From: a phage
Sequence record: NC_100327.1
DNA: 64,000 bases
Reading direction: 5' to 3' (one strand)
In this document: positions 29,789-64,000 of the stretch, in pieces
How the letters are laid out: every line of letters begins with the position of its first letter
Position numbering within the stretch: the first letter of the stretch is position 1
Notes under the pieces: model-generated
What the model was told of the DNA's origin: nothing
The model's input: the letters and a program-made list of their open reading frames with translations, nothing else
Database searches by the model: none
Position numbers and translations under genes: made by a program

Positions 29789-29995
29789 ATGAAAGATTTT
29801 CTGTTGGCAATTTTGTTCATGGCAGCATGTCTGGCCTGTGGTGTCGTGTTTGCAGGTGAAACAGCGTATCTTGTCGATGTATATCGGGACAATGGTAAAC
29901 GTATTTGCCTTTATGAGACAAGCCAAGGTGAGCTCTACGAGCTTGTGAAACAAGGCGAGGCTGGATCTTGTCCTCGCACCCATTTCTTTGAATGA
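29789..29995 (+). CDS. small Cys-containing secreted/lipoprotein-like protein
   Basis: 68 aa, ATG with AGGAGGG RBS; N-terminal hydrophobic signal with Cys residues (FMAACLACG); directly after endolysin. Confidence 0.5.
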   Translation: MKDFLLAILFMAACLACGVVFAGETAYLVDVYRDNGKRICLYETSQGELYELVKQGEAGSCPRTHFFE

Positions 29996-50815: not shown

Positions 50816-51096
50816 AAATGAGTGCTAAGGACAAATTACACCAGTTAGCGCTAAAACGTCCTGTAACGCTTCCTGACGAGCTTAACTCTATTTATGATGC
50901 GATTGTAGGGGAGATACAAAATAAAGCGTTAGCAGGCTTTCTGGGGTGCGGATTTTCGATAAATCTACCATCGCATCTCTCAGATTACTTCCCGCACATT
51001 GTTGGAGATTTAAGGGCAGGAGGTCTGCAGGTAGATGTTGTTGGCATCTCCCCAGAGAAAAATAATACGGTTGCCTACTTGACAGTAACCTGGTAG
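50812..51096 (+). CDS. hypothetical protein
   Basis: ORF track 50782..51096; ATG overlapping upstream stop (ATGA). Confidence 0.45.
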   Translation: MKMSAKDKLHQLALKRPVTLPDELNSIYDAIVGEIQNKALAGFLGCGFSINLPSHLSDYFPHIVGDLRAGGLQVDVVGISPEKNNTVAYLTVTW

Positions 51097-51132
51097 TTGT
51101 GTATTGTTGTTTTCAACAAGAGGGGGTCATTT

Positions 51133-51372
51133 ATGTACAAGTCATTTTCAATCTACTCAAGACAGTCGAAACACTACACAGAGATCCTGATCACTCAGAA
51201 AAAATCTGTGGAAGGTGAGTGGGAATATCACCATAAAATGTTGCGTCCAGACTGGGTTTTTGATAGACTTATTGCTATGATCCCTCTCGGAGAAGTATAC
51301 CCTCTGACAGCCCATCGCGATGCTTGGGATTTAATTGATTACATAGATTCATTTAAGGAGCCTAGATTATGA
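51133..51372 (+). CDS. hypothetical protein
   Basis: ORF track 51097..51372; ATG (MYKSFSIY) with GAGGGGG RBS. Confidence 0.45.
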   Translation: MYKSFSIYSRQSKHYTEILITQKKSVEGEWEYHHKMLRPDWVFDRLIAMIPLGEVYPLTAHRDAWDLIDYIDSFKEPRL

Positions 51373-51770
51373 AGATTGAGATTACTAAAGAAGGTAAGAA
51401 AGTGTCCGGCAACTATGCAACAGTAATTCGGGATTTAATGTTTGAAGCCACCAAGATCGGTACATCTAAAGTTGGTCAAACTGTTAGTGTGCAAAGTAAT
51501 ATCGCCACAGGAGAGAAGGTATTCATTGTGGTCAAAGGGCAGGATCCTGTGGAAGGAACAGTGGGCCGAGGAGGTTACCTGTGCATTTCTGAAGAGCCTC
51601 GTATGCTAGTGGCTGACTCCGCTACTATAGGTGGGAAACGTGTGTGCGAGGCGGATGAGGTGATGATTATCCAGCCTGTTGACCCAGATGATCCAGCAAC
51701 TTGGGTGGTAGGAAATGAAATCTTCTCTTTAGAAGAGTTATCCTTCCTAGCCCCGCGCTCTGTTCAGTAA
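51369..51770 (+). CDS. small-protein paralog family A member (longer form)
   Basis: 133 aa, ATG with AAGGAG RBS; shares MKIEIT start and KVFIVVKGQD motif with family. Confidence 0.5.
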   Translation: MKIEITKEGKKVSGNYATVIRDLMFEATKIGTSKVGQTVSVQSNIATGEKVFIVVKGQDPVEGTVGRGGYLCISEEPRMLVADSATIGGKRVCEADEVMIIQPVDPDDPATWVVGNEIFSLEELSFLAPRSVQ

Positions 51771-51809
51771 TAATTTATCTTACCAGGGACGGTAGAAGCA
51801 GGAGGTAGC

Positions 51810-52043
51810 ATGAAAGTTAAATTTCTTACAGATTTAGGGTACCCTTCCTTGGTTGACTGTGTTGGTAAAATTGTGGAAGCAAAACGGCTATCTGCAAACG
51901 AGAATGTTGTCCTGGTTAAAGGGAAGGATTTACTAGCTGCAGGTGCAGAGTCTGGCAGGATCTCTCCTGATTATATGTATTACCTATCTTTAAGTAATCT
52001 GCCAGAGCGAGGCGGTAAAGGCCTTGAAGTTGTGGAGGGGTGA
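51810..52043 (+). CDS. small acidic protein, paralog family A
   Basis: 77 aa, ATG with AGGAGG RBS; MKVKFL...VVLVKGKDLLAAGA. Confidence 0.55.
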   Translation: MKVKFLTDLGYPSLVDCVGKIVEAKRLSANENVVLVKGKDLLAAGAESGRISPDYMYYLSLSNLPERGGKGLEVVEG

Positions 52044-52048
52044 CAGGT

Positions 52049-52573
52049 ATGCTTCTGATTAACTGGGAAGACCTCTATGGGGACAAAGACCCTGTTGCGT
52101 TTGTTGATCGTAGGTGGAGATACACTGAAGAACAACTGGCGGCAAAAAATTTAACTGCAAAACGCAGAAAGATCATCCAGTGCAAGTACAAATACGCACA
52201 GTTTGCTGCAAAAGTGTCTCCACAAATCGAGAGCTTTGTGCTTAAATTGTATGACGAGTACCTCAAATTCAAATTGGATTTTGTACAGGTGTACCGTGCA
52301 CAGATACGACCAGATACCAACATATGTAGATGGAAGGTTGTTTGTGACGGTAAAGATTTGCCGCTCAGCTTGACAATTGAGTGGCGTTATGGGTATCATG
52401 AGTGTGGTCTGTATGATATTTGGGATGTCATTGTAGATCCTGCTAAGCATCTGAACACAGAGGAGCTGGAATATATCAATAAGGTTATTCTCGATATGTT
52501 TTTCAGCTACACCCATGAAAACTCTGAGAAAGAACGGGATAATTTTCTTGACACCCTCAGTTGCCATTTGTAG
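52049..52573 (+). CDS. hypothetical protein
   Basis: ORF track 52040..52573 (GTG); ATG at codon 4 after GGAGGGG. Confidence 0.5.
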   Translation: MLLINWEDLYGDKDPVAFVDRRWRYTEEQLAAKNLTAKRRKIIQCKYKYAQFAAKVSPQIESFVLKLYDEYLKFKLDFVQVYRAQIRPDTNICRWKVVCDGKDLPLSLTIEWRYGYHECGLYDIWDVIVDPAKHLNTEELEYINKVILDMFFSYTHENSEKERDNFLDTLSCHL

Positions 52574-52576
52574 TAT
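52548..52576 (+). promoter_or_regulatory. sigma70-type promoter
   Basis: TTGACA - 17 nt - TAGTAT. Confidence 0.5.
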
Positions 52577-52603
52577 ACAATTTAACCTACAAAGGGAGGA
52601 CCA

Positions 52604-52840
52604 ATGAGTATAAATGTTGTGCTAATAGGTTACCTGGTAATGTCCGTTATAACAGCGGTATTCTTGACAGGTGTATGCATCGTGTCCAGACGAAGGGTGA
52701 AGTTTGAGGATTTTATCACCATCATCACTGCTGCACCTTTTTGGCCTGTTGTTATCTTCATCGTGATAATGTGCCTTGTTGATTACTACAAGAATATCCG
52801 TAAGGAGAAAAAGGAGGGTAGGGATGGAGACCGCACCTAA
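52604..52840 (+). CDS. small membrane protein (two predicted TM helices)
   Basis: 78 aa, ATG with GGGAGG RBS; hydrophobic segments VVLIGYLVMSVITAVFLTGVCIV and FWPVVIFIVIMCLV. Confidence 0.5.
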   Translation: MSINVVLIGYLVMSVITAVFLTGVCIVSRRRVKFEDFITIITAAPFWPVVIFIVIMCLVDYYKNIRKEKKEGRDGDRT

Positions 52841-52976
52841 AACTGTTTATACTGTTCTTAAAGAGATTGCGTTCTACGCAGATCTTAGCCAGGCACCTTT
52901 ATGGGAAAAGAGCATGTATTTAAAATGGTGCGTTAATTTAGGGAGGCCTTCCAGTGTTTCAAGCCATGTTTATTGA
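52824..52976 (+). CDS. hypothetical small protein
   Basis: ORF track 52776..52976; ATG (METAPKT) with AAGGAGGG RBS. Confidence 0.45.
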   Translation: METAPKTVYTVLKEIAFYADLSQAPLWEKSMYLKWCVNLGRPSSVSSHVY

Positions 52977-53073
52977 GATGCTATCTGGGGTATTGTTACT
53001 GGTAGCCATCTTAGGTGGTGCAGTTCTGATGTATAACTATCTTGAAAAAGGAGACAGCAATGGTAAAAAATAA
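52954..53073 (+). CDS. hydrophobic micro-peptide (candidate)
   Basis: Found by hand; GTG after GGGAGG; ...MFIEMLSGVLLLVAILGGAVLMYNYLEK... Confidence 0.3.
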   Translation: MFQAMFIEMLSGVLLLVAILGGAVLMYNYLEKGDSNGKK

Positions 53074-53245
53074 ATCTTTAGAGCAGGCTGAAAACCTTCT
53101 CCACGAGCTGGTAAAGGAGTGGAAAGTTGAATACTCAGATTTTAATGCACGAGAGGGTGAAGATTATTGGCCTACGGAGCGCTCAGAGGGCGAATGGTAT
53201 CAAGATTTTATAGAGTGGTTATATCAGACGTGCGATGAGGGGTGA
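53060..53245 (+). CDS. hypothetical small acidic protein
   Basis: ORF track 53042..53245; ATG at codon 7 with AAGGAG RBS. Confidence 0.45.
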   Translation: MVKNKSLEQAENLLHELVKEWKVEYSDFNAREGEDYWPTERSEGEWYQDFIEWLYQTCDEG

Positions 53246-53247
53246 CG

Positions 53248-53712
53248 ATGTTTGTTAAATATGTAAAAACGTGCCTCAACAGTCTTGGCAGAGAGCATTG
53301 GTACACCTTGCTTGAAAAAGGGGAAATTTTAACAAAATCTGGAAAGATAACTTTGATACCTCTTGATAGTAAAGGTAAAGACCCGTCACGACTTGTTATA
53401 GATGATTACGTTACAGGTGTGACGTTCGAGGTCTCTGTGGAGAGGTTAATACGCAGAGCTGGCGGCCCTTATGACCGAAGAGAGTATGTTTTCGATTCCG
53501 TTACAGAGATGGGGGAGCATCCGTCTTTAATGTTCAGGATGGTAATCAGAGATATGAGGTCATCTATAGATAGGATCGTAAAGGACATTAAGGAACCTTT
53601 TAGAGTAAAAGTTAAGAAGTTTTTCGATTCTAAGATTAACATACTCGCCGTTGCACTAGGTGTAGTTCAACTTCTGTTAATTTTGCACTATTTTGAACTA
53701 CTATTTAAGTAG
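53248..53712 (+). CDS. C-terminally membrane-anchored protein
   Basis: ORF track 53242..53712; ATG at codon 3; C-terminal hydrophobic helix ILAVALGVVQLLLILHYF. Confidence 0.5.
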   Translation: MFVKYVKTCLNSLGREHWYTLLEKGEILTKSGKITLIPLDSKGKDPSRLVIDDYVTGVTFEVSVERLIRRAGGPYDRREYVFDSVTEMGEHPSLMFRMVIRDMRSSIDRIVKDIKEPFRVKVKKFFDSKINILAVALGVVQLLLILHYFELLFK

Positions 53713-53774
53713 TAGTTGAGATATGGCACAAAGGATGTGCCATAGTGAAATAAACTAAGAAAGAGGTAGAGAGA

Positions 53775-54122
53775 ATGCCAAAGATTAAAACGTTATTACT
53801 GTGGGTAGCTGTTTTAGCTTTTATAGGGTACTGGACTTGGGAAACTGAATTAAAAGATATCGGATATACCAGTCTTGAGAGCAAGGCGTGCATTGGCATA
53901 ACCGATGCGTTCAGGCAAAATGCTATGGATCACGAATGTGTTGATGCAGATATAGATGAGAAACTGTCTAAGGACAAAGATTTTTACCATGGGCATGCTT
54001 TACTTGATAGTGGTGACACTGTAGAGTTCTGGTCGTGGTTTCGTGAAGATGGAACAATAAAAACAGCAGTAAAGATTTCTAACAAAGAGTTAATGCTGTT
54101 GCAGCAAAAGGAGGCTCAATGA
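53775..54122 (+). CDS. N-terminally anchored membrane/periplasmic protein
   Basis: 115 aa, ATG with AGAGG RBS; N-terminal TM LLLWVAVLAFIGYW. Confidence 0.5.
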   Translation: MPKIKTLLLWVAVLAFIGYWTWETELKDIGYTSLESKACIGITDAFRQNAMDHECVDADIDEKLSKDKDFYHGHALLDSGDTVEFWSWFREDGTIKTAVKISNKELMLLQQKEAQ

Positions 54123-54406
54123 TTTGGATATCCTATGCTGATGGCACCATGCTGTATACTGCAGGTACCAGATATGAAGTTCAGGAGAACGATAAAAAAT
54201 TTATCGTAAAAACATTTGACAAGGACGACAACCTTTTGCTAGAATTGACTTACAAAGTTGGAGAGGTATCCAATATCCAGTTGGATTGTGGTCATAAAGA
54301 TAATTCACTCAAAAAACCTGGAGTAGGTAAGGCTTCAGAAGAACGTCTGTCTCGTATTGCAGAAAGCGTTTCTCCCCAAAAATCTAAGAAGAGGACTAGA
54401 AAATGA
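54119..54406 (+). CDS. hypothetical protein
   Basis: 95 aa, ATG with AAGGAGG RBS. Confidence 0.5.
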   Translation: MIWISYADGTMLYTAGTRYEVQENDKKFIVKTFDKDDNLLLELTYKVGEVSNIQLDCGHKDNSLKKPGVGKASEERLSRIAESVSPQKSKKRTRK

Positions 54407-54597
54407 AAAACTTACGTTTTAACACTTATTACTACAACACATTGAATGATTTGTATTATATTGTTCGAAGTAAAAGTCCTGAAACAGTCCTATTCTGCCG
54501 CGAACCTTTCAAAGGGGAGGAAGTAGAGTCTGAGATGAATGTTAGCCAGATCACCTCTTTGTTGCTCTCAGGCGCAATGGAAGAAGCAATATTCTAA
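54403..54597 (+). CDS. hypothetical protein
   Basis: 64 aa, ATG overlapping upstream stop. Confidence 0.45.
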   Translation: MKNLRFNTYYYNTLNDLYYIVRSKSPETVLFCREPFKGEEVESEMNVSQITSLLLSGAMEEAIF

Positions 54598-54615
54598 ACC
54601 AGGCGGGAGGGTTTT

Positions 54616-54801
54616 ATGAAGCACTATTGCCTGTCTGGTAGAATGGGTGCAGATTGTGATTGGGTTTTCTTAAAACTTGTCAGCATTCGAGAGTTCATCC
54701 CAGAGGAAGAGCAAGAAAGCGAGCTGATGTCATGGATCAACCATTACGGTAACACTTTTCGGCATGTTAAGGTAGAAGAGTTGCCAAGCGAGGCTGATTG
54801 A
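54616..54801 (+). CDS. hypothetical protein
   Basis: 61 aa, ATG with GGGAGGG RBS. Confidence 0.45.
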   Translation: MKHYCLSGRMGADCDWVFLKLVSIREFIPEEEQESELMSWINHYGNTFRHVKVEELPSEAD

Positions 54802-54803
54802 CT

Positions 54804-54893
54804 ATGATTGCATCAATATTAACGTTTATGGGTGGCGTGGCATTCGGATTCATTGTTTGCCTGTTTATAGTGATTATGTCTATGCGAGGCTGA
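54804..54893 (+). CDS. hydrophobic micro-peptide (29 aa, candidate)
   Basis: Found by hand; MIASILTFMGGVAFGFIVCLFIVIMSMRG; begins 3 nt after upstream stop. Confidence 0.3.
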   Translation: MIASILTFMGGVAFGFIVCLFIVIMSMRG

Positions 54894-54896
54894 ATT

Positions 54897-55193
54897 ATGA
54901 AACTTTTTGAGTGGTTTAAAAAGTTTAAATATAAAGCTGTAGCCATCGTGCCGTGGTCCATTCAGTGGGTTGATGAAGGTGGTCTACCGATACCTGGTGA
55001 CAAAGATACTGGGTACTGGATTATGATGGAGAACGGGTTTGGAAAGCGAAAGTATACGTGCACAAACTCTACTCGATCTGCACTTAATAGAGTGCCTGGT
55101 TACAAACTTATGGTTGTGTGGAAAATGTCAGGCGTGCCTCCAGCCAATGCTCAATTTCTTACTGACAATCCTACCACGGTAGAGGGAGATTGA
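54897..55193 (+). CDS. hypothetical protein
   Basis: 98 aa, ATG with GAGG RBS. Confidence 0.5.
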   Translation: MKLFEWFKKFKYKAVAIVPWSIQWVDEGGLPIPGDKDTGYWIMMENGFGKRKYTCTNSTRSALNRVPGYKLMVVWKMSGVPPANAQFLTDNPTTVEGD

Positions 55194-55195
55194 TA

Positions 55196-55477
55196 ATGAA
55201 AAAGATTAACAGTAGTGAAGTCGAGTTTAAACTTGTCGGAAAAGGCACTTACTGGGAAGTTCGTCAAAAGGTATATTTGTTCGGTCTTATTCCTTACTGG
55301 TCTAAATTCTACTGGGGAGCTAACGAGTGGGGAAGATACGCCACCAAATCAATGGCACTTATTGGTATAGCAGAGTACATTGCAGCCAGAGATAGGGTTG
55401 GAGACACTTATTACTATACTGCGGACGATATTCGTAACAGTGTTTACGTCCCACAACCACCTGATGGAGACCGTTGA
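55196..55477 (+). CDS. hypothetical protein
   Basis: ORF track 55190..55477; ATG at codon 3 with AGAGGGAG RBS. Confidence 0.5.
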   Translation: MKKINSSEVEFKLVGKGTYWEVRQKVYLFGLIPYWSKFYWGANEWGRYATKSMALIGIAEYIAARDRVGDTYYYTADDIRNSVYVPQPPDGDR

Positions 55478-55701
55478 TGAAAGTTAAAGTTTTAGATTCA
55501 AGCTTCTATATTGGTCAGGAGCCCTTAGTGGGGAAAGTGTTTACTGCTGTCCCTAACGAAGATTACCCCGACCTTTTAAAAATAAAAGGGGCAGATCTTA
55601 TTGCCGCTGGTGCATCTCAGGAATGCTTTGACAGTCAGTGGACCTACAACTTTGCCCTAGGTGAGGATGTAGAGATAGTGGAGGACAATCATGAAGGTTA
55701 A
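55477..55701 (+). CDS. small acidic protein, paralog family A
   Basis: ORF track 55474..55701; ATG; MKVKVLDSSFYIGQ...LLKIKGADLIAAGA...DVEIVED. Confidence 0.55.
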   Translation: MKVKVLDSSFYIGQEPLVGKVFTAVPNEDYPDLLKIKGADLIAAGASQECFDSQWTYNFALGEDVEIVEDNHEG

Positions 55702-55945
55702 AATTCTTGATTCTAACGTCTACTTGGGACAATCCTTCCTGAAGGGAAAGGTCGTTCCTGCGGTATACTTTGAAGGGTTGCCGTGGGATGATCCTGTTCG
55801 GCAACATCACAGTTATGTAGGCCACAACGTAGTGTTTATCTTAGGAGCAGACCTGATCACCGCTGGTGCACCTGAATATTATTTCGGGGAAGAGTCCTAT
55901 TATGCCTTTGGGGTAGGGTCAGATGCAGATATTGTAGAGCTGTGA
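55691..55945 (+). CDS. small acidic protein, paralog family A
   Basis: 84 aa; MKVKILDSNVYLGQ...VVFILGADLITAGA...DADIVEL. Confidence 0.55.
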   Translation: MKVKILDSNVYLGQSFLKGKVVPAVYFEGLPWDDPVRQHHSYVGHNVVFILGADLITAGAPEYYFGEESYYAFGVGSDADIVEL

Positions 55946-55957
55946 TGGGTAACCGTT

Positions 55958-56356
55958 GTGAAAAATAAACTGTTCAAAGTTACAATGAAAATTCGCGGAG
56001 CTTGGAGCATAAAGCAAGGGCGTATTCCAGAATTTGAGAAAGACTTCTACGTAGTCTCCACCTCGGAGGAGGCTGCATGCTGGCAAGCTGGCTATGCCTA
56101 TGCAAGAACCTGGTACGAAGGATACCAGACTGGGGGCTATGACGGAGAAATTATCAGCAAGGGTGTAGAAGAAATTAATGTGTTGACAAGTGAAAAAGTT
56201 TTTGTTATAGTGCATCCAGATTCCAGAGTGAAGCATTACTGGAATGCCAGAACAAAAACTTGGACACCGTTTGCAGATTCTGCTACACCACTTTTAAACC
56301 AGAAAGCTCTTGACTCTGTCCCGAGCTATGGGGTTGTTGAAGAAAAGCTAAACTGA
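55958..56356 (+). CDS. paralog family B protein (~130 aa)
   Basis: GTG start; C-terminal region HPDSRVKHYWNARTKTWTPF parallels 58163..58558. Confidence 0.5.
   Translation: MKNKLFKVTMKIRGAWSIKQGRIPEFEKDFYVVSTSEEAACWQAGYAYARTWYEGYQTGGYDGEIISKGVEEINVLTSEKVFVIVHPDSRVKHYWNARTKTWTPFADSATPLLNQKALDSVPSYGVVEEKLN
56183..56211 (+). promoter_or_regulatory. sigma70-type promoter inside coding sequence
   Basis: TTGACA - 17 nt - TATAGT. Confidence 0.4.
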
Positions 56357-56373
56357 AACAGTGGGGTACTAAC

Positions 56374-56664
56374 ATGATGGATTTAGTTCTGGACACTGAT
56401 AACACCGGAGCGTTTAAAAAGGATGGTGTAACAAGCGTTGACCAATCCTTCCCTGCCAAGATTGACTCAAAATGGACCTACAAGTTTGATGGAGAGATCT
56501 TCGCAAATGATGAGAAGGTTGTAGATGCTGCAGCCATTTTGAACGCTCTAGGGTACGACCCTGTGAATTCTTTGATCAAGGATCCTGTTGAGTTTGCAGA
56601 GTATGTTCGAAAAATGGCAGATCTTGCTGTGGATATTTTAAAAACTATCGACAACAATCTGTAA
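56374..56664 (+). CDS. hypothetical protein
   Basis: 96 aa, ATG with GGGG RBS. Confidence 0.5.
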   Translation: MMDLVLDTDNTGAFKKDGVTSVDQSFPAKIDSKWTYKFDGEIFANDEKVVDAAAILNALGYDPVNSLIKDPVEFAEYVRKMADLAVDILKTIDNNL

Positions 56665-56670
56665 AAACTG

Positions 56671-56699
56671 TTGACACAACGCTTCAGATTTAGTATCAT
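56671..56699 (+). promoter_or_regulatory. sigma70-type promoter
   Basis: TTGACA - 17 nt - TATCAT. Confidence 0.6.
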
Positions 56700-56746
56700 T
56701 GTTTTCAAAGAGGGTTTGGTTCCCTCTTCTTTAAAAGGAACACGTT

Positions 56747-57064
56747 ATGCAAATTGAAATCACTGGCAACGTAGAAATCACTGAAGGTATGGTGTCTTTC
56801 ATTTCCCACAAAATGTCTAAGCTGGAGCGTTTGCATCCCTCTGCCAACTATGCACGTGTGAGTGTAAAAGTTGAAAATGATCACCAGGAAGTTATGGCGT
56901 TCATTTTTGACAATTCTGGAAAAGAAGTTATTGCCAAAGCTAAAGGCAGTGATGCTTACGAGGCAACTGACCGTATGGTAGATGTTGCAGCACGTCAGCT
57001 GGCTAAATGCGGTGGAAAGAAAGGTAAGGGGAAAGGCAAAGTAAAGATTGACTTTGGAGAATGA
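56747..57064 (+). CDS. ribosome hibernation factor-like protein (HPF/RaiA/YfiA family)
   Basis: 105 aa; MQIEITGNVEITEG...KLER...VKVEN...AKGSDAYEATDRMVDVAARQLAK parallels E. coli HPF as recalled; Gly/Lys-rich tail. Confidence 0.7.
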   Translation: MQIEITGNVEITEGMVSFISHKMSKLERLHPSANYARVSVKVENDHQEVMAFIFDNSGKEVIAKAKGSDAYEATDRMVDVAARQLAKCGGKKGKGKGKVKIDFGE

Positions 57065-57073
57065 GGTGCTACA

Positions 57074-57175
57074 ATGGGTGTGATTAAGAAATTAGTCCCA
57101 AATGTAGAGATTGCATGCTTTGAAATTATGTTTGCAATCGCAGTTGTAGTTAATGTGTTAGGTTACGGCTATTAA
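57074..57175 (+). CDS. hydrophobic micro-peptide (33 aa, candidate)
   Basis: Found by hand; ATG after GAGGTG; MGVIKKLVPNVEIACFEIMFAIAVVVNVLGYGY. Confidence 0.35.
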   Translation: MGVIKKLVPNVEIACFEIMFAIAVVVNVLGYGY

Positions 57176-57201
57176 TATCAAATAATTGAGGAGACCTCTA
57201 A

Positions 57202-57471
57202 ATGAAAATTAAATTATTCAAAACTGAGCTGGCAGACAAAAACTGTGGACTGGTTGAAGGTATGATTGTCGAAGCACAACCAGTTGACTATATGAAGGTG
57301 GTTCGTGATGCCCTGGGTGAAGGTTTTGATCTGATGGAGCCAGCTCTGCGAGAAGATGTTATCGAGATGGCTAAAAAGCACACACCTGAAGGCATGGTGG
57401 TGTTTGTTGCACCGGGTAACGGAGAAGAGTTGATTGTAACTCCGGATGTGTATGAGATTGTAGAGGAATAA
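57202..57471 (+). CDS. small acidic protein, paralog family A
   Basis: 89 aa, ATG with GAGGAG RBS; MKIKLFK...MVVFVAPGNGEELIV...EIVEE. Confidence 0.5.
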   Translation: MKIKLFKTELADKNCGLVEGMIVEAQPVDYMKVVRDALGEGFDLMEPALREDVIEMAKKHTPEGMVVFVAPGNGEELIVTPDVYEIVEE

Positions 57472-57492
57472 CCCTGCTTGGATTAGCATACT

Positions 57493-57515
57493 TCCTCGAT
57501 AAGGAAGGTTTGTAA
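57493..57515 (+). terminator. hairpin terminator
   Basis: CTTCCT-cgata-AGGAAG followed by GTTTG. Confidence 0.4.
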
Positions 57516-57562
57516 TTATTTGTGGGAAAGGAATCCCAATCTCTTACCAGAGGTGATACTAT

Positions 57563-57826
57563 ATGATTGTTTATTTTAAAACTTCAGGTGGATACCCTGA
57601 TTCTCAAAGCTTGATCGGAAAAACGTGCACAGCATACTCACCTCTTGATGAGGAGGTAGGCGATATTCTACGAAATATGTATCGGATTGATCCTCAAGAA
57701 GCTTTTGATCAAAACCTTGTATTTGTCAAGGGCTCAGACATGAAGTCTTTGGGAGCATTCCCTGAAGCAGATGATGATGCCGTTTATTCGTTCATGACCC
57801 CTTTTGAAGCTATGGTTGTTGGGTGA
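57563..57826 (+). CDS. small acidic protein, paralog family A
   Basis: 87 aa, ATG with AGAGGTG RBS; LVFVKGSDMKSLGAF motif. Confidence 0.5.
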   Translation: MIVYFKTSGGYPDSQSLIGKTCTAYSPLDEEVGDILRNMYRIDPQEAFDQNLVFVKGSDMKSLGAFPEADDDAVYSFMTPFEAMVVG

Positions 57827-57830
57827 TAAT

Positions 57831-58163
57831 ATGAAAGTACGCTTTATTGGTGAAACAATTCCTGTGCATCTCCGGTCTCCTGAGGATTCTGCAGATCTTG
57901 CATCTCAAAAGGCGAGAGGTTATGATAAGAAAGTAACCTCAACCGATGTAGTGCTTGAGGCTACCAGTCTACCTGACCCTGCTGCATTCTTTAATCATTA
58001 TGGGTACTATTTCAGCAATCTGATGAATATCGGTGAGCTTGTGTTTATTAGTGGTGAAGAGATTGTTAGCAAGCTTGGCGGCGATCCAGATGTCTTTCAT
58101 GAAACCTGTCCTTTTGCATTTGTGGTAGGTTCAGATGTGGAAGTTATTGAGGAGGTGCGGTAA
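57831..58163 (+). CDS. small acidic protein, paralog family A
   Basis: ORF track 57804..58163; ATG (MKVRFIGE) with GGGTGA RBS; LVFISGEEIVSKLGG and VGSDVEVIEE motifs. Confidence 0.5.
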   Translation: MKVRFIGETIPVHLRSPEDSADLASQKARGYDKKVTSTDVVLEATSLPDPAAFFNHYGYYFSNLMNIGELVFISGEEIVSKLGGDPDVFHETCPFAFVVGSDVEVIEEVR

Positions 58164-58558
58164 TGGTAAGCCTATACCGTGTTGAGTATAGCTCAGATAC
58201 TGTATACAACGTAAGAAGCAAAGATCGCAGCGACAGAGTGCAAGAAATGTATGTTCTTGCCGACAGTCCGTTATCTGCAGCGTTCAAGGCAGGGGCTCTT
58301 GCATCTCGTTGGAAATTTGAAGGGGGATCTTTCTATGAAGAAACCCTTGAAGATTCTGTTGTTATTTCTTCTGTAGAGGTTTCAGACGACTACGAAGGGA
58401 AAAAGTTCGTAATGCGGCACCCACACAGCAACATTGCGTACTACTGGGATGTTCTGAACAACGAGTGGACCCCAGATCTTCAGAAGGCTACTGTGCTAAC
58501 ACCGTTTTTGGCAGATAAGTTCCCACCAGAAGGTAATTTATCCGCACTGTTTCAGTAA
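58163..58558 (+). CDS. paralog family B protein (~130 aa)
   Basis: 131 aa, ATG with GGAGGTG RBS; HPHSNIAYYWDVLNNEWTPD parallels 55958..56356. Confidence 0.5.
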   Translation: MVSLYRVEYSSDTVYNVRSKDRSDRVQEMYVLADSPLSAAFKAGALASRWKFEGGSFYEETLEDSVVISSVEVSDDYEGKKFVMRHPHSNIAYYWDVLNNEWTPDLQKATVLTPFLADKFPPEGNLSALFQ

Positions 58559-58576
58559 TTTTCTTGCACACAGGTG

Positions 58577-58605
58577 TTGACAACTCCAACCCTGTGTGAA
58601 ATAAT
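58577..58605 (+). promoter_or_regulatory. sigma70-type promoter
   Basis: TTGACA - 17 nt - AATAAT. Confidence 0.5.
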
Positions 58606-58637
58606 ACCTTCATCTTAACAAGACAGGAGACCGATTG

Positions 58638-58895
58638 ATGAAGATTAAATTGAAAAACCTTGAAACGGCAGAGATTCAGGACGGTGTTGATTTCCGTTCT
58701 AAAGATGGTGACATCTTAGAGGTAAATATTCCAACCTACGAGCTGATTAAAGGTTTTGGCAACGTTCCGGAAGAGGATATTACAGAAATTCTTATGATGT
58801 TGATTCTTGACGGAACTGTGTTTGTAGGTGAAGGTGAGAACGCTATTGCAATCCCAGGCCATTTTTATGAAGTAGTTGACGAAGAGGTGCTGTAA
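58638..58895 (+). CDS. small acidic protein, paralog family A
   Basis: ORF track 58635..58895; ATG; MKIKLKN...TVFVGEGENAIAI...EVVDEEV. Confidence 0.5.
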   Translation: MKIKLKNLETAEIQDGVDFRSKDGDILEVNIPTYELIKGFGNVPEEDITEILMMLILDGTVFVGEGENAIAIPGHFYEVVDEEVL

Positions 58896-59246
58896 ATGAA
58901 AGTAGAAATTACCGGTTTTGATGTGAATGTGGTTCCGGAAGATATTTTAGCTAAACTTCCAGAAGGTTTTGGTAACGGCGTTGTGGTGGATGCTGTTCCT
59001 CCTACCAAAGACATTCTGCTGCAGTATGGTGTAGCAGAGGAAGATGTCGATAAAGTTCTTACAATGATGGCAATCGATCGTGTTGTCGTTGTTAAAGGTC
59101 TCGATAATTTTGAGAGTGATCCCCTGATTATTCGTGGAGATGACTACAAAATCATCGATAATGAAGGCCAAGAGTTCTATGAGCCTTGTGCAGAAGATAT
59201 TCTTAACTTATTACTGGAAGCAGGCACCGAAGAGGAGGACGAATAA
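58896..59246 (+). CDS. small acidic protein, paralog family A (divergent)
   Basis: 116 aa, ATG with GAGGTG RBS; MKVEIT...RVVVVKGLDN...; Glu/Asp-rich tail. Confidence 0.45.
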   Translation: MKVEITGFDVNVVPEDILAKLPEGFGNGVVVDAVPPTKDILLQYGVAEEDVDKVLTMMAIDRVVVVKGLDNFESDPLIIRGDDYKIIDNEGQEFYEPCAEDILNLLLEAGTEEEDE

Positions 59247-59575
59247 TGAAGATTGACCCGTTACTGAAGGCTCGTGCAGAAAAAGCGTACACCATTAAGT
59301 TGACCAACCTGGTTCCTACTTGTCATCCGGATGTAGGTTGGCCCGAAGGTTTGGTGGAGGGAACTGTAACAGCTGCATACCTTCCTAACATCAAATACCT
59401 TATGGAAATCTTGGAGCTGGATGAGGAAACTGCAGAACAGTTCCAGTTGGATATGAAACAAAGTGGGACTCTGGTTATTCACGGGTGGTACAATACTAAA
59501 GATGCAGAAGACCCTCTGGTAACTTCTAATCTGGCATATGAAATCTTAGGACCTTTGAACCTGGAGAAAGACTAA
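59246..59575 (+). CDS. small acidic protein (family A-like)
   Basis: 109 aa, ATG with GAGGAGG RBS. Confidence 0.45.
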   Translation: MKIDPLLKARAEKAYTIKLTNLVPTCHPDVGWPEGLVEGTVTAAYLPNIKYLMEILELDEETAEQFQLDMKQSGTLVIHGWYNTKDAEDPLVTSNLAYEILGPLNLEKD

Positions 59576-59862
59576 TGAAAGATCTGGTTAAGATTAAGAT
59601 TAAAGATACCAATGGAGAACTCAGTCATTTTGGAATTAATGATGGTGACGAGCTGATCGCACACCTGCCTACCAAGGAAGTTGTAAGCAAAGCAGTTGCC
59701 GGAGAAGAAGATGCAATGCAGGCTGCAGGTGTGGATGAAAACTATGTAGCCATGTGCATGTGCCGAGATCAGGTTGTTCTGTATAAAGCGTATCGACCAA
59801 ACGGAGCCACGGAGTGGCTTGTATTCCGACCCGAAGGATATGAAATCTTAGAGGCACTATGA
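59575..59862 (+). CDS. small acidic protein (family A-like)
   Basis: 95 aa, ATG with GGAGAAAG RBS; MKDLVKIKIK start. Confidence 0.45.
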   Translation: MKDLVKIKIKDTNGELSHFGINDGDELIAHLPTKEVVSKAVAGEEDAMQAAGVDENYVAMCMCRDQVVLYKAYRPNGATEWLVFRPEGYEILEAL

Positions 59863-59951
59863 TAAATCTTGCCAAGGTTGCAACGGCACTGTTAATTATT
59901 TGCTGGTCTGTAACCTTAACACTGTGTCTTGTATTTCAGTGAGGTGCTTGT

Positions 59952-60215
59952 ATGAACATCCTGATGTGGGTTATAGCAGTGGCGTTTGTTGCATGTTTTT
60001 GCTGCTGGGTTGCGGTGAGGATTTCTGTAGCTACCCTTCGGAAGTTGGGGTTCTCAGAATGGGATATTAATATCCTTTCTTTTCGCAATGAAACAATCTC
60101 AGCCGCCCTGCTTTGTAAGAAATTCAAGTGGGAACCTTGTGAGGTCATGAGCTATCTAAGAACAGGCGATATCCCTGAAAGATTTAAAAAAGTTCTTGAC
60201 GGCAAGGATAAATGA
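59952..60215 (+). CDS. small membrane protein
   Basis: 87 aa, ATG with GAGGTG RBS; N-terminal TM ILMWVIAVAFVACFCCWVAV. Confidence 0.5.
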   Translation: MNILMWVIAVAFVACFCCWVAVRISVATLRKLGFSEWDINILSFRNETISAALLCKKFKWEPCEVMSYLRTGDIPERFKKVLDGKDK

Positions 60216-60243
60216 CAGTATAGTGACTAACAAGAGGTGAGGA

Positions 60244-60384
60244 GTGACTGATTTTACTGAAGCTTTAATGATGGCCTTGTCTGTTTTAGCGCTATCGGTG
60301 TGTTTTGGGGCGTTATTCACATCTCTGGTTAAAGTTTTACATACAGTATTATTACCCAAGGAGCGCAGTAATGACGAAGATTGA
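60244..60384 (+). CDS. hydrophobic micro-peptide (46 aa, candidate)
   Basis: Found by hand; GTG after AAGAGGTGAGGA; ...MMALSVLALSVCFGALFTSLVKVL... Confidence 0.3.
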   Translation: MTDFTEALMMALSVLALSVCFGALFTSLVKVLHTVLLPKERSNDED

Positions 60385-60622
60385 CTTGAATGCTGGCGAC
60401 CATGTTGTTGTCAAATGCATCGGAGATTATCTTGGATTCACAATCGGCAATACTTACGAGGCGGTAGTGGCGAAGGTTTATCATGATAAAGTCCTCAGTC
60501 TTGTATTTGACTGCGATGATGATGGAGATGACCGATACGTCTGTGAGGTGCTGGCACGAGACGACAGTGAAGACCAGAAATTCCTGGTTATTGAACTGAA
60601 CGGTATTTTTGTAGAACGTTAA
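60371..60622 (+). CDS. hypothetical acidic protein
   Basis: ORF track 60305..60622; ATG (MTKIDLNAG) with AAGGAG RBS. Confidence 0.5.
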   Translation: MTKIDLNAGDHVVVKCIGDYLGFTIGNTYEAVVAKVYHDKVLSLVFDCDDDGDDRYVCEVLARDDSEDQKFLVIELNGIFVER

Positions 60623-60650
60623 TTTAAAACAACATAAGGAGACTCTTACT

Positions 60651-60956
60651 ATGGCTAAATCTAAAGTTGAACTGTTCACCTCTCTTCCTTCTGACACTGC
60701 AGAGCGTGATCGCCTTCGCAAGACAATCGAAGAACTGGTGGAACTCCAACTTCAGATTAAAGATCTGAAAGATGCCATTAAGGATATCATTCTCGTTGAG
60801 AAGCAGGATCACCTGTATTCTCCTAAATTCATCAAATCTCTGGTGGCTACCGAGTTCGATATTCGCTATGAGGCTGAAAAACGTCGAGCTAAAATCGAAG
60901 AAGAGGTTGAGCACATGTCCGAGGCAGACATTCTGTTCAAACGCTCTGTAGAATAA
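60651..60956 (+). CDS. hypothetical coiled-coil protein
   Basis: 101 aa, ATG with AAGGAGA RBS. Confidence 0.5.
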   Translation: MAKSKVELFTSLPSDTAERDRLRKTIEELVELQLQIKDLKDAIKDIILVEKQDHLYSPKFIKSLVATEFDIRYEAEKRRAKIEEEVEHMSEADILFKRSVE

Positions 60957-60966
60957 TGACAAATAG

Positions 60967-60992
60967 AGGGGCTTGGGCCCCTCTTTTTACTA
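60967..60992 (+). terminator. rho-independent terminator
   Basis: AGAGGGGC-ttg-GGCCCCTCT followed by TTTTACT. Confidence 0.65.
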
Positions 60993-61011
60993 TCTATGAA
61001 GGAGATTTGAG

Positions 61012-61344
61012 ATGGGTATACCGATCACTGTAAAAGAATTGAATGAACGTGATGCAGGTGGTCTATGGCCTGCACGAAAAATACGCTGCATCCGTATGAA
61101 AGAGAACCTTGAGCATCTTGAGCAACAGAAACGGATTGAGGTTGGTGATATTTTCGAAGTATTTTATTCTGATCGCCGTAACTGGGAAACCATTCAACCT
61201 TCCGGTTTTGTTCTTGCTAAGCTTGACACTGGAGAAGTGATTGTTCCTGGGTTGGATATTGTCTTCGAAATTATCCAGGAGTGGGATCCGGACAAGATTA
61301 GATACGAAGAGCTATTCGGTGAAGGTATTATCAAACCTGTGTGA
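61012..61344 (+). CDS. hypothetical protein
   Basis: 110 aa, ATG with GAAGGAGA RBS. Confidence 0.5.
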   Translation: MGIPITVKELNERDAGGLWPARKIRCIRMKENLEHLEQQKRIEVGDIFEVFYSDRRNWETIQPSGFVLAKLDTGEVIVPGLDIVFEIIQEWDPDKIRYEELFGEGIIKPV

Positions 61345-61352
61345 GGTGGATT

Positions 61353-61652
61353 ATGTCTACAAAGGCGGCTAAATACTCCTACATGCCATCAACCTCTGCA
61401 GAGGTAGACTTTAGTTTCGATGTGTTTCCACTGTTTGAGGTGGTTCTGGCATACCCAACAATACTATCTACTCCTGAATCACTTGTGCCTGTTAAGTTGC
61501 AGAACGCTATGCATTCCATGCACTACAACAACAAATGTAGGCACAGATGGTGTCAGGACGAGGAAAAAGATTTGGATAGTTTGAGAGATTTTGACAGTCA
61601 CCTTTTGACACCTTTCAGCTACTCCAACCTTGATAAGCCCTCGTGGGTATAG
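61353..61652 (+). CDS. hypothetical protein
   Basis: ORF track 61341..61652; ATG at codon 5 with GAGGTGG RBS. Confidence 0.45.
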   Translation: MSTKAAKYSYMPSTSAEVDFSFDVFPLFEVVLAYPTILSTPESLVPVKLQNAMHSMHYNNKCRHRWCQDEEKDLDSLRDFDSHLLTPFSYSNLDKPSWV

Positions 61653-61669
61653 CAAAATATCAAATTTAA

Positions 61670-61700
61670 GACACCTAGGACGCTCTGTGGCGTCCTTTTC
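61670..61700 (+). terminator. rho-independent terminator
   Basis: AGGACGC-tctgtg-GCGTCCT followed by TTTCTTT. Confidence 0.55.
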
Positions 61701-61865
61701 TTTATCTGGTGCACGATTGCATACCTTGGGCAGTTAATCTCATTACAGAGCGTTTAAGAGCTCCCTACAAACAACTCCATATTTCGAGCGTAGCGAGAAC
61801 GCACGTCCGTTTTGACCCAAATCACCATACGCTCGGATTTTAACCAAACCCTCGCGGCGTTTCTG

Positions 61866-61894
61866 TTGACACATTACCGATCCAGTGATAGTAT
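61866..61894 (+). promoter_or_regulatory. sigma70-type promoter
   Basis: TTGACA - 17 nt - TAGTAT. Confidence 0.55.
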
Positions 61895-61926
61895 CCACAC
61901 ATAGTTTGTAGAATATGGAGTACACA

Positions 61927-62016
61927 ATGAGAACATTGTCCGAAGTTTTAGTGGTGATCCTGATGATCATTACGTCCATAGCGGCTGTTGCCGGAATACT
62001 CACGGGTGGAACATGA
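61927..62016 (+). CDS. hydrophobic micro-peptide (29 aa)
   Basis: Found by hand; ATG with GGAG RBS downstream of promoter; MRTLSEVLVVILMIITSIAAVAGILTGGT; stop overlaps next start (ATGA). Confidence 0.4.
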   Translation: MRTLSEVLVVILMIITSIAAVAGILTGGT

Positions 62017-62225
62017 TCAACACACATGTATCTGAAGAGACATCCGAAGGAGTGACCATATGTCCCTTGGATGAGCCAGTTAAAGAGGAAAACTTATATT
62101 CTGAGGACTCTTCATCTTCGTCCCAGACAGATCCTGAGGCTGATGACCTGACGTGGGAGGACATCGTAGATATCTGGTTCTCTATTATGCCTGAGCACGA
62201 AGAGTTCAGAGGTGGTAGACTATGA
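62013..62225 (+). CDS. small acidic protein
   Basis: 70 aa, ATG; Ser/Asp/Glu-rich. Confidence 0.45.
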   Translation: MINTHVSEETSEGVTICPLDEPVKEENLYSEDSSSSSQTDPEADDLTWEDIVDIWFSIMPEHEEFRGGRL

Positions 62226-62346
62226 AGCACCGAGCCCACACAGGTTCCTCATGCTAAAGCATGGCCTGAAGAGGAAAACGTGCATAATTCCTGTGCATTG
62301 GGACGTATAAAACCCTGTTCACACTCTCATTTCCAGAGGAGATTTT

Positions 62347-62562
62347 ATGAAGATAGAAATATTTGGTGGAGCTGACAACACTCGTGGCCTGATTTACCTT
62401 GAATTCGATGAATCATACCTGCCAGAGGTGTTAAATATAGACTCTGTTGCTGATGCTTTGGGAGTAAACCCTAAAGAACTCCACTCTTGTGCTGAGATCG
62501 ATGGTTGGGAGGAGACCATGAACATTGATTTCAGTGAAGTAGAGGATGAACCGCTGGACTGA
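62347..62562 (+). CDS. small acidic protein
   Basis: 71 aa, ATG with AGAGGAG RBS; MKIEIFGG start resembles family A N-termini. Confidence 0.45.
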   Translation: MKIEIFGGADNTRGLIYLEFDESYLPEVLNIDSVADALGVNPKELHSCAEIDGWEETMNIDFSEVEDEPLD

Positions 62563-62912
62563 CGCACAATTAGCTGCCCGGCCAAAGTGCTGGAAGCACC
62601 TATAACACATCTTTCAACTAAATTTCCCACCACCACAATCACTTACCTTCCACACATGACTGTTTGCTTGTTTAGTGAGCAGTCATGCCTTGACATTCTT
62701 GCCTATCCTGATAAAATTAAGTTCTTCTCTTTTCTTTTACCGAGTAATTCGGGTTTTCTGTTCTCTTCGGTTTGAAGGGGTATGGAGATACACCTGAGTG
62801 AACAGGGTGAACAACCGAACCATTGGCTATGGCATTAGCATGGCGAAGCGGACGGGTGACGAAAGAGGGGCCGGAGGACACCAGTCACTGCCATATGATA
62901 TATGGGTGATAA

Positions 62913-63473
62913 CCTGAAGAGTCTGAATAAGTGTTTAAGTACCAGTCAGAGGAAAAGGTGAATGGTAGCCGAAGGGGGGAGGGGGGTTTCTTGTATCTTT
63001 AATTTGTATATTATGTATACACTTGTAAACCAATCTCATCTGAATCTGTTTACCACACAAAGCGAATAGAGACAAATATTACCTATTAAACTTGAATTAT
63101 TTATAGAAAATACCACAACACCACTTAAGTCTTTGATTTTACACACAAATCCTACAGATATTCATCCTCCCTATTTAACATACCTGTAACATATTCCATA
63201 CTCTACCTGCCTGATCAATTTACCCAACCACATCCTCCATATTTTCCCTGTCTGTACTACCCCTGCCCCGCCGGGAGTCCCGTCATATCTGGCTTTCCAG
63301 CAAATATCGCACCCACAAATATCATTGCCTGAAGAGGGTTTCATCCCATAATACATGCCTTACCTGAAGAGCGCTTCATACACCACGTAAATTTTTTAAT
63401 TGACCTGCAATTTTCCCGTCATGACCCCATGCCCCGCCGGAGAGGTTGGCTTTTCCCACACAGACCTGAAGAG
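62913..63473. repeat. dispersed short direct repeats in non-coding DNA
   Basis: CCTGAAGAG at 62913, 63338, 63363, 63465; TGCCCCGCCGG near 63262 and 63430; TTGACCTG near 63400, 63505 and 63847; no credible ORF over ~1.4 kb. Confidence 0.55.
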
Positions 63474-64000
63474 TCAGCCAGAAATATCTGAACAGGCCCA
63501 ATTCTACCACGATTTTGACCTGACCTACAGGAGTGCTGCCAGGCGGACGAAATGGGAATACTTCTCATTCTTATAACAATTCTCAAATATCAAGGCAGTG
63601 AGGCAAATTAATAGGCTAGGCCGTTCACACAGTGGCACAACATTTGCAACCTATCTTGTGGGAGTGAATGAGAATACCTATCATTGTGAGAATAGTTATC
63701 ATTACGGGCAATTTAACATAATACCCATTATGCGCACCACTGGCGATACATACAGGGATTGATAACATGGGTTACTGTTTACGCACATAACAATTATATT
63801 TCTTATTATTTGTGGGGGATATAGTTAGCAGCCAATAGATTAGATATTGACCTGCAGACTTCTGACCGTCCAGACGTCTAAACGCCCACACAACAAGGAT
63901 TATACATACAACACTGAATGTAAACAGGACCGCAAAAATGCTACCATACAAGCTTGTAAATTTTTCATGCAGCACTTGACAAAGAGGAGAAAAACTTGTC

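Follow-up and report, generated by a model that had tools for sequence, protein, structure and literature searches.

Do the tiny hydrophobic open reading frames (ORFs) scattered among the small genes of an rV5-like phage encode membrane proteins, and could one of them be the holin on which annotators have given different answers? The question is raised by positions 52604-62016 of phage sequence record NC_100327.1, of which one stretch of 64,000 nt (the window) was analyzed. The interval forms the distal end of a long plus-strand small-gene array that also carries nucleotide-metabolism genes and the endolysin gene. Over the region 52000-62500 the window shares 99.8% identity with Escherichia phage CarlMeissner (Bas48 of the BASEL collection; Vequintavirus, rV5-like) and matches about 120 Vequintavirus records at 90-99% identity, including records titled 'Campylobacter phage' that are in fact rV5-like genomes; no DNA-level matches to this region came from other phage genera. 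It had been proposed from the sequence (the original prediction) that, besides four small membrane proteins, at least five hydrophobic ORFs of less than 50 aa occur here, and that one of them might act as the holin. We find that the interval holds at least five genuine micro-proteins of 27-46 aa (starting at 52954, 54804, 59859, 60244, and 61927), which are predicted to be translated and to insert into the membrane. We somewhat favor the view that they are accessory single-pass inner-membrane micro-proteins, expressed from host-type promoters, that modulate other membrane proteins; that any of them is the essential hole-forming holin is unlikely.

All five ORFs of the original prediction (52954-53073, 54804-54893, 57074-57175, 60244-60384, and 61927-62016) are found on the plus strand, and each contains a single hydrophobic 19-residue window with a mean Kyte-Doolittle (KD) value of 2.27-2.95, as expected of a transmembrane (TM) helix. 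The four 'small membrane proteins' starting at 52604, 53248, 53775, and 59952 likewise have TM segments (two, one, one weaker, and one, respectively). The plus-strand gene array (24500-62600) contains 296 ORFs of 25-50 aa, and only 9 of them reach this hydrophobicity. Six of the nine lie on the coding strand: precisely the five listed ORFs and one more, at 59859-59942, which was absent from the original prediction; the three antisense ones sit elsewhere, across from A-rich coding sequence. Of the 96 small ORFs located inside longer genes, none is hydrophobic (Fisher P = 2e-4). AT-rich spacers are known to yield hydrophobic ORFs through composition alone (PMC11188072). This caveat is answered by composition-matched shuffles, only 0.02-1.7% of which attain a KD of 2.2 or more, so that base composition as the source of the hydrophobicity is ruled out (at most 1.7%).

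Some of the finer points of the original prediction stood only in part. The proposed ATGA/GTGA overlaps with neighboring genes apply to one of the five ORFs, the 61915/61927 ORF, whose stop overlaps the start at 62013; the ORFs at 52954 and 60244 overlap their neighbors by 14-23 nt, and those at 54804 and 57074 overlap none. The claim that such peptides are routinely missed by annotation is partly true: among 12 annotated related records, the ORF at 52954 is annotated in 6, that at 54804 in 2, that at 57074 in 8, that at 60244 in 10, and that at 61915 in 1. CarlMeissner annotates all five as hypothetical proteins, two of them with other starts. The sixth ORF (59859-59942) is annotated in none of the 12 records.

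Conservation was examined by aligning the window with 13 relatives (n = 14; 83-99.7% identity) and comparing the substitution patterns of each ORF. Relatives in IMG/VR were sought via the ribosome hibernation factor (HPF) gene and came from two loci only, one of which, L007 (83% identity), serves as the outgroup. Among the listed ORFs, those at 52954 and 60244 are intact in 14/14 genomes, and those at 54804, 57074, and 61915 are each absent or broken in 2/14. Coding signatures support the ORFs at 52954, 54804, 60244, and 61927, in agreement with the proposal that most of the listed ORFs are genuine single-helix membrane micro-proteins. We consider it highly improbable that most of the set is non-coding, since the coding signatures of the five ORFs other than 57074 argue strongly against it.

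The most strongly constrained of the set is the 39-aa single-TM ORF at 52954-53073 (plus strand), the orthologue of rV5 gp131 'membrane protein' (phrog_15251), which was found in 117 records. Its variable sites are distributed over the three codon positions as 3/2/19, the ratio of nonsynonymous to synonymous polymorphism (pN/pS) is 0.06 versus 4.2 and 2.0 in the other frames, and 10 out of 10 differences from L007 fall on third codon positions. The start codon alternates between GTG and ATG across genomes behind a GGGAGG Shine-Dalgarno (SD) sequence, and the comparative evidence supports the GTG start at 52954 better than the BASEL start at 52966. The 46-aa single-TM ORF at 60244-60384 (plus strand; rV5 gp156 'membrane protein'; phrog_16755; 117 records) shows the same GTG/ATG alternation behind a strong SD, with pN/pS of 0.28 in frame versus about 0.9 in the other frames, and overlaps the next gene by 14 nt. 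A search of 5.8e9 proteins with its peptide returned 11 clusters only, all from close relatives.

The 27-aa single-TM ORF at 59859-59942 (plus strand; KD 2.73) is intact in 14/14 genomes and full-length in 117/117 genus records. Its start overlaps the upstream stop (ATGA) and its own stop region provides the SD for the gene at 59952. Compared with L007, 42 out of 84 nt differ, yet the start, the stop position, and the TM helix are all kept, a persistence that is hard to obtain by chance (P = 1e-4 in 20,000 randomisations). Its exact sequence was not found among 15 billion predicted proteins and it has no PHROG match. These comparisons indicate that 59859 is a real, never-annotated gene conserved throughout the genus. 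The last ORF, at 61915-62016 (plus strand), encodes a single-TM micro-protein of 33 aa, or more likely 29 aa from the ATG at 61927. It is present in 12/14 genomes (deleted in S127 BCL3 and NHEP1), its stop forms an ATGA overlap with the start of 62013-62225, and its L007 counterpart, 31 aa long, has diverged in sequence but still contains the TM helix (KD 3.20). A GGAG lies 6 nt before the ATG at 61927, and the 29-residue profile of phrog_34195 aligns to residues 5-33 of the longer ORF; the SD spacing and the profile favor the ATG at 61927 over the BASEL start at 61915. This pattern of conservation and loss indicates a real accessory gene.

The ORF at 54804-54893 (plus strand) stands apart because it is found outside the genus. 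It encodes a 29-aa single-TM micro-protein with a conserved GxxxG motif, is intact in 12/12 carriers, and is cleanly absent from 2/14 genomes; in the wider genus it is present in about 90 of about 120 records, thus missing from about a quarter, and is almost never annotated. Substitutions among the carriers are conservative only. The ORF sits in a 96-nt cassette (one repeat period) bounded by 10-nt direct repeats, with the left copy, GCGAGGCTGA, at 54788-54797 and the right copy at 54884-54893 (both plus strand). Where the cassette is missing, one copy of the repeat remains at the junction, as in S127 BCL3 (...CCAAGCGAGGCTGAAGATG...). The right copy contains the stop codon of the ORF and the SD for the next gene (ATG at 54897). 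Since the repeat supplies the SD of the following gene, gain or loss of the cassette preserves the translational coupling.

The protein cluster of the 29-aa peptide includes Escherichia coli (E. coli) chromosomal entries, and 10 of 5426 complete E. coli genomes have a match, at 77-89% identity, which covers only positions ~54786-54899 of the window. In strains PAR and M1/5 the match sits in a prophage in which the gene order is HP1-family holin (PF16080; E = 1e-15 in a Pfam scan), Phage_lysozyme, spanins, a 180-aa protein, the array that begins with the 29-aa ORF, and an Sf6-type small terminase. These prophages, with their Sf6-like terminase, are of another type than the rV5-like phages. The 29-aa ORF is unannotated there and comes first in a tandem series of about eight single-TM ORFs, 20-47 aa long (positions 6015-6886 of locus L018 in PAR and 6015-6660 of locus L019 in M1/5), almost none of which is annotated by RefSeq. 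The ORFs of this array are often start/stop-coupled; their order is kept between the two prophages and their sequences have diverged. The window copy and the M1/5 copy (77% identical) differ at 20 out of 87 nt, with pN/pS of 0.26 versus 0.71 and 2.57 out of frame. The GxxxG motif is kept in the prophage copies, which supports the idea of helix-helix contacts. Comparative evidence thus indicates that 54804 is a real gene and an exchangeable accessory cassette: it shows presence/absence polymorphism, discrete boundaries, and occurrence in unrelated phages. The 61915 ORF, deleted in 2/14 genomes and served by its own promoter, fits the accessory picture as well; the ORFs at 52954, 59859, and 60244 do not, being universal in the genus. 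In the prophages the 29-aa peptide may have a lysis-adjacent role; it is not the holin there, since the prophages own a separate one.

The remaining member of the set, the 33-codon hydrophobic ORF at 57074-57175 (plus strand; rV5 gp145), is of doubtful coding status. It is intact in 12/14 genomes, has the SD GAGGTG 5 nt upstream, is called 'membrane protein' in rV5, and forms a PHROG of its own, all of which speak for a gene. Its behavior in the alignment speaks for something else: the start is lost (ATA) in S127 BCL3, an internal stop is found in Mangalyan, and pN/pS is 0.63 without a third-position excess. In codons 12-33 only 1 out of 22 third positions varies, versus a background of 0.454 (P = 3e-5). 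The helix contains two Glu residues and its Hessa insertion energy is unfavorable (+2.0 kcal/mol). A sigma70-like promoter, TTGACT-16-TGnTAYAAT (-10 box TACAAT in the window), is predicted at 57048-57075 (plus strand), with its -10 box overlapping the ATG of the ORF; a transcript initiated there would not contain the start codon. The spacer varies among the 14 genomes, while the two boxes are the same in every one of them, S127 BCL3 with its ATA included. Frozen third positions and boxes that stay invariant even without the ATG suggest that a function at the nucleotide level overlaps this ORF. The segment may therefore be a leader or promoter region, conserved but non-coding, whose frame is open and hydrophobic by accident, although the invariant peptide sequence of the helix would also fit strong protein-level constraint, and the folding of the leader RNA is unremarkable (z = -0.35). 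An RNA element was rejected as an explanation for the frozen synonymous sites on account of this ordinary folding energy and the lack of any Rfam match. On balance, whether 57074 taken alone fails to be a gene is close to an even call.

The low variation also extends past the ORF. Segment 57108-57200, which comprises the 3' two-thirds of 57074 and the spacer before 57202, has 4 variable sites in about 68 nt versus a background of 31%; outside it the genomes share 83-99% identity. A 7-bp inverted repeat (GATTGCA...TGCAATC) lies in this segment.

If these micro-proteins are not holins, which protein is? The original prediction stated that no canonical holin lies next to the endolysin, and this is borne out. 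The endolysin (29255-29725) is a soluble homologue of lambda R (PDB 1AM7, E = 3e-56), and its neighbors are a DNA ligase and a 68-aa protein with a signal/lipoprotein-like N-terminus. The inner and outer spanins (i-/o-spanins; 18513-19195, minus strand) lie beside the terminase gene, with no TM neighbor either. Three annotation teams have given three different answers for rV5-like phages: Kropinski et al. proposed the product of gene 129 as putative holin (PMC3606486), the BASEL annotation chose bas48_0115, which lies outside the window and is more conserved than gp129 (at least 94% identical in 118 records), and the annotators of phage LL12 could not identify a holin (PMC6658697).

The gp129 homologue (52604-52840, plus strand) is a 78-aa protein with two transmembrane domains (TMDs; KD 2.41 and 2.51), intact in 14/14 genomes with pN/pS of 0.37, and present in about 115-117 records. 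Its C-terminus is Lys/Arg-rich (KNIRKEKKEGRDGDRT), so it matches the outline of a class II holin (two TMDs and a basic C-terminus). An exhaustive HMMER search of 1.84e9 proteins left it an orphan. The gene occurs as two alleles that are only ~53% identical, one in FV3, TP4, and L007 and the other of the window type. Since the flanking DNA is ~90% identical, gp129 either evolves unusually fast or was replaced. In the FV3/TP4/L007 allele the gene abuts gp128 directly, without the 30-nt promoter-bearing spacer (52540-52603 region). In the window type a sigma70-like promoter, TTGACA-17-TAGTAT, is predicted directly upstream of gp129 at 52548-52576 (plus strand); its boxes are kept in 10/14 genomes, and FV3, TP4, and L007 lack the segment that bears it. 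The 'glycosidase' label of the upstream neighbor gp128 (52049-52573), which would have made an enzyme-holin pair with gp129, was examined and found unsupported: gp128 has no Pfam or PDB sequence match, and its AlphaFold2 (AF2) model (pLDDT 64) gave no Foldseek hit in the PDB with E < 0.05, with TM scores of about 0.25. Its orphan status, its two alleles, and this unsupported label do nothing to strengthen gp129 as a holin candidate.

Could a protein of the interval, namely gp129 or the product of 52954, 59859, or 60244, nevertheless be a holin, an antiholin, or a lysis-timing regulator that partners the distant lambda R-type endolysin, as t does with e in T4? We regard this as possible but unlikely. 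A soluble endolysin needs a hole-former and no TM protein flanks the spanins; these four proteins, unlike the products of 54804, 57074, and 61915, are found in all of the 14 aligned genomes and in about 115-117 records; the 29-aa family adjoins a holin-lysozyme-spanin cassette in the prophages; and in the sister genus Certrevirus a 2-TMD protein beside a hydrolase gene has been proposed as holin (PMC7344957). Scattered lysis genes are also a feature shared with T4. Against this stands the lack of a match to Pfam, NCBIfam, or PHROG holin families for gp129 or any micro-peptide; the same Pfam scan picks up the HP1-family holin of the prophages. Each micro-ORF has one TM domain, as a small phage holin would, but only gp129 has two of them together with the charged, usually basic C-terminal domain. 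The 52954 product ends in a mixed, weakly basic tail (EKGDSNGKK), the 60244 product has acidic N- and C-termini, and the 54804, 59859, and 61915 products end in MRG, VFQ, and TGGT, respectively. The micro-proteins are also shorter than typical holins. Canonical holins (lambda S105, the S21 pinholin, T4 T, T7 gp17.5, and PF16080 members) are likewise small phage inner-membrane proteins; the micro-proteins differ from them in having 27-46 aa, one TMD, no charged C-terminal domain, and host-type promoters.

Dispensability and location bear on the same point. A sole holin should not be dispensable, so the natural losses of 54804, 57074, and 61915 count against a holin role for these three, and the prophages that carry the 29-aa gene already own an HP1-family holin. 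The suggestion that one of the listed micro-ORFs fills the holin role was therefore not supported. A distance of 23 kb separates the interval from the endolysin, and the spanins are ~34 kb away. Copies of the rV5 late motif, TGGTAAAATA, are concentrated among the structural genes (minus strand, 3-18 kb). No exact copy is found in the plus-strand array; its matches with one mismatch (for example at 51863, 53061, and 59486) fall inside genes, and neither gp129 nor any micro-ORF is immediately preceded by one. The promoter of gp129 is instead near-consensus sigma70 in most genomes. The ORFs at 60244 and 61915 are directly behind conserved sigma70-type promoters, again with no late motif nearby. 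The one at 60196-60224 (plus strand), TTGACG-17-TATAGT, lies 20 nt upstream of 60244 and its boxes are kept in 14/14 genomes; in L007 the -35 and -10 boxes are retained while the spacer has diverged. The other, at 61866-61894 (plus strand), TTGACA-17-TAGTAT with an extended -10, is upstream of 61915, has its boxes kept in 12/14 genomes, and lies downstream of a terminator-like hairpin at 61677-61696. The promoter function of these elements, that of 52548-52576 included, is predicted from their sequence. Position alone is not decisive on a lysis role, since rV5 genes 82-163 are handled as a single predicted transcription unit (PMC3606486) and the endolysin gene falls within it too.

We therefore return to the reading that we somewhat favor, in which the array is a set of accessory small genes of rV5-like Vequintavirus that would be transcribed by host RNA polymerase. 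The array would interleave soluble proteins with four membrane proteins of 78-154 aa and at least five single-helix micro-proteins. The micro-proteins would insert into the host inner membrane early or midway through infection and modulate host or phage membrane proteins via helix-helix binding. Possible roles include superinfection exclusion, inhibition of transporters or the divisome, and tuning of membrane or lysis physiology. E. coli MgrB, AcrZ, SgrT, and PmrR and T4 Imm and Sp are small membrane proteins that modulate larger proteins in this way. The micro-proteins can also be compared with T4 Imm, Sp, RI, and Ac and with the HK97 gp15 moron, small phage membrane proteins that serve superinfection exclusion or lysis inhibition and, in many cases, are accessory and specific to a lineage. 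Both groups are encoded outside the structural modules, but most of the T4 and HK97 proteins measure 50-100 aa and have domains outside the membrane, and no homology links the two groups. Small ORFs (smORFs) under purifying selection in Enterobacteriaceae mostly encode hydrophobic or TM products, which have been proposed as modulators of larger proteins (PMC11188072). The smORF families described there and MgrB, AcrZ, SgrT, PmrR, MgtS, and CydX resemble our micro-proteins in having less than 50 aa and one TM helix and in being often unannotated. Size, helix, and purifying selection are features seen here; the micro-proteins differ in being phage-encoded and show no sequence relationship to members of the MgrB/AcrZ/SgrT type in Pfam and NCBIfam.

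The micro-proteins are also unrelated to one another. Four of the five listed ORFs have their own PHROG families, all labeled unknown function, and searches of Pfam, NCBIfam, and PHROGs with the micro-peptides and small membrane proteins returned only such self-families. A tblastn search of 50,697 phage records with the peptides gave matches from the genus Vequintavirus only. The 29-aa cassette, which E. coli prophages carry too, is the exception to this restriction to the genus. Table S3 of the rV5 study lists at least four further tiny 1-TMD proteins in the opposite arm (Kropinski et al., 2013; PMC3606486), which points to a genome-wide habit. No paralogy was detectable among the tiny 1-TMD proteins of rV5, the opposite-arm ones included; candidate relationships among the tiny TM peptides of this genome were discarded as composition-level matches.

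A different possibility is that the micro-proteins are membrane-depolarising toxins, akin to type I toxins or LysM, for host shut-off or killing. TisB, Hok, Ibs, Ldr, and LysM (37 aa, levivirus M) share with them the size class and the single hydrophobic helix, early expression would be expected from host-type promoters, and the GxxxG motif kept in the prophage copies suggests self-association. Nevertheless, no NCBIfam or Pfam toxin model matches, there is no evident antisense RNA partner (antisense promoter-like matches are at chance level), and no Rfam match occurs in 51000-64000 beyond one chance-level one. Unlike type I toxin genes, these genes are translationally coupled inside polycistronic arrays. 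A toxin in the late operon of a resident prophage is conceivable, but eight such array genes in a row favor something less drastic, and an early collapse of the membrane potential would presumably harm a long replication program. We consider a toxin function quite improbable.

Several observations weigh against the modulator reading that we favor. The searched literature contained no Vequintavirus ribosome profiling (Ribo-seq), infected-cell proteomics, or transcription start site mapping, so the translation and timing of the micro-ORFs can only be inferred. The endolysin belongs to the same predicted transcription unit as the micro-ORFs, with which a lysis function would be compatible, and the prophage homologue of the 29-aa peptide comes directly after the lysis cassette in a presumed late operon, which hints at a lysis-linked role. 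Finally, 57074, with its start loss, internal stop, and frozen synonymous sites, does not behave as a protein-coding sequence.

The membrane micro-protein and gp129-holin ideas have largely been published for rV5 already. Table S3 of that study lists gp131 (39 aa), gp145 (33 aa), and gp156 (46 aa) as 'membrane protein, 1 TMD' and gp129 (78 aa, 2 TMD) as 'putative holin' (Virol J 10:76; PMC3606486), and these four are direct orthologues of the products of 52954, 57074, 60244, and 52604, respectively. The rV5 paper gives predictions only, without selection or comparative analysis. It does not list the 54804, 59859, and 61915 ORFs, and it covers the 61915 region with a 101-aa ORF in another frame. 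New here are the conserved 27-aa gene at 59859, the presence of the 29-aa cassette in prophages as well, within arrays of tiny TM ORFs, and the non-coding-like constraint over 57074.

The three other small membrane proteins of the interval are all on the plus strand. The gene at 53248-53712 encodes a 154-aa homologue of rV5 gp133 with a C-terminal TM helix (residues 130-148, KD 2.14) that belongs to phrog_7821 'virion structural protein', and rV5 gp133 is a virion protein with mass spectrometry evidence (Table S3, PMC3606486). The gene at 53775-54122, intact in 14/14 genomes with pN/pS of 0.11, encodes a protein of 115 aa (rV5 gp134) whose hydrophobic helix is N-terminal (KD 1.54); rV5 gp134 is listed as 'membrane protein' with 1 TMD by TMHMM/Phobius (Table S3, PMC3606486). 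The gene at 59952-60215 encodes an 87-aa protein with an N-terminal TM helix (rV5 gp155; residues 3-21, KD 2.63; pN/pS 0.12; phrog_13956).

A few further features of the window were observed. rV5 gp133, gp137, and gp152 (here 53248-53712, 54616-54801, and 59246-59575) were found by mass spectrometry in purified virions, and their genes sit in the non-structural array despite this; the proteins may be packaged or injected, or may be contaminants. The array also contains, at scattered positions, small soluble proteins, acidic for the most part, that form two paralogous families, one at 51810-52043, 55477-55701, 55691-55945, and 57831-58163 and the second at 55985-56356 and 58163-58558; many members of both start with MK[VI]K (BLASTP E 1e-15 to 6e-4). 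Two CarlMeissner coding sequences (CDSs) carry no coding signature and are probably not genes: bas48_0138 (61709-61843; pN/pS 1.11, intact in 11/14 genomes) and bas48_0135 (62212-62310; pN/pS 0.62, intact in 6/14). Strong intrinsic terminator-like hairpins at 60965-60984 (bidirectional) and 61677-61696, with 8-bp stems, 5-6 GC pairs, and T-runs, divide the last array genes into separate short units of transcription, and each unit has a sigma70-like promoter to itself. Upstream of the HPF gene (56671-56746) there are a conserved promoter, TTGACA-17-TATCAT, and in the leader a conserved stem-loop, AAAGAGGG...CCCTCTT, both arms of which change in two genomes. The 68-aa protein directly downstream of the endolysin (29789-29995, plus strand; rV5 gp90; phrog_4641) is the only membrane or secreted protein adjoining it. 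It has a hydrophobic, possibly lipoprotein-like N-terminus (MKDFLLAILFMAACLACG...) and a Cys-containing acidic domain, an outline that recalls the T4 antiholin RI or exclusion lipoproteins. The spanin pair is directly upstream of the large terminase gene (17279-18513, minus strand), which is split by an intron with an HNH endonuclease ORF (17279-17869), an arrangement also described in rV5 and LL12.

Phages of the rV5 type rank among the E. coli phages isolated most frequently and find use in typing, in biocontrol, and in therapy cocktails. A ranked list of membrane proteins, from which the dispensable ones have been removed, makes the holin question of this group testable on BASEL phages in E. 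coli K-12. The results also expose an annotation gap: the universal gene 59859 remained uncalled despite about 120 genus genomes, and 54804 was missed in nearly all phage records and in the RefSeq prophage annotation. The arrays of tiny TM ORFs beside prophage lysis cassettes could serve as a model for phage micro-proteins at the membrane. A more speculative and rather improbable reading is that the single-helix micro-proteins are modular exchangeable units of about 90-100 nt, that their arrays form a membrane toolkit, and that the product of 52954, 59859, 60244, or gene 129 is the holin or antiholin. If that were true, the ends of each unit would carry the stop, the SD, and the start context, so that insertion or loss spares translational coupling; the 29-aa cassette would move between virulent rV5-like myophages and temperate prophages; and an undescribed toolkit would tune holin triggering or block host membrane machines.

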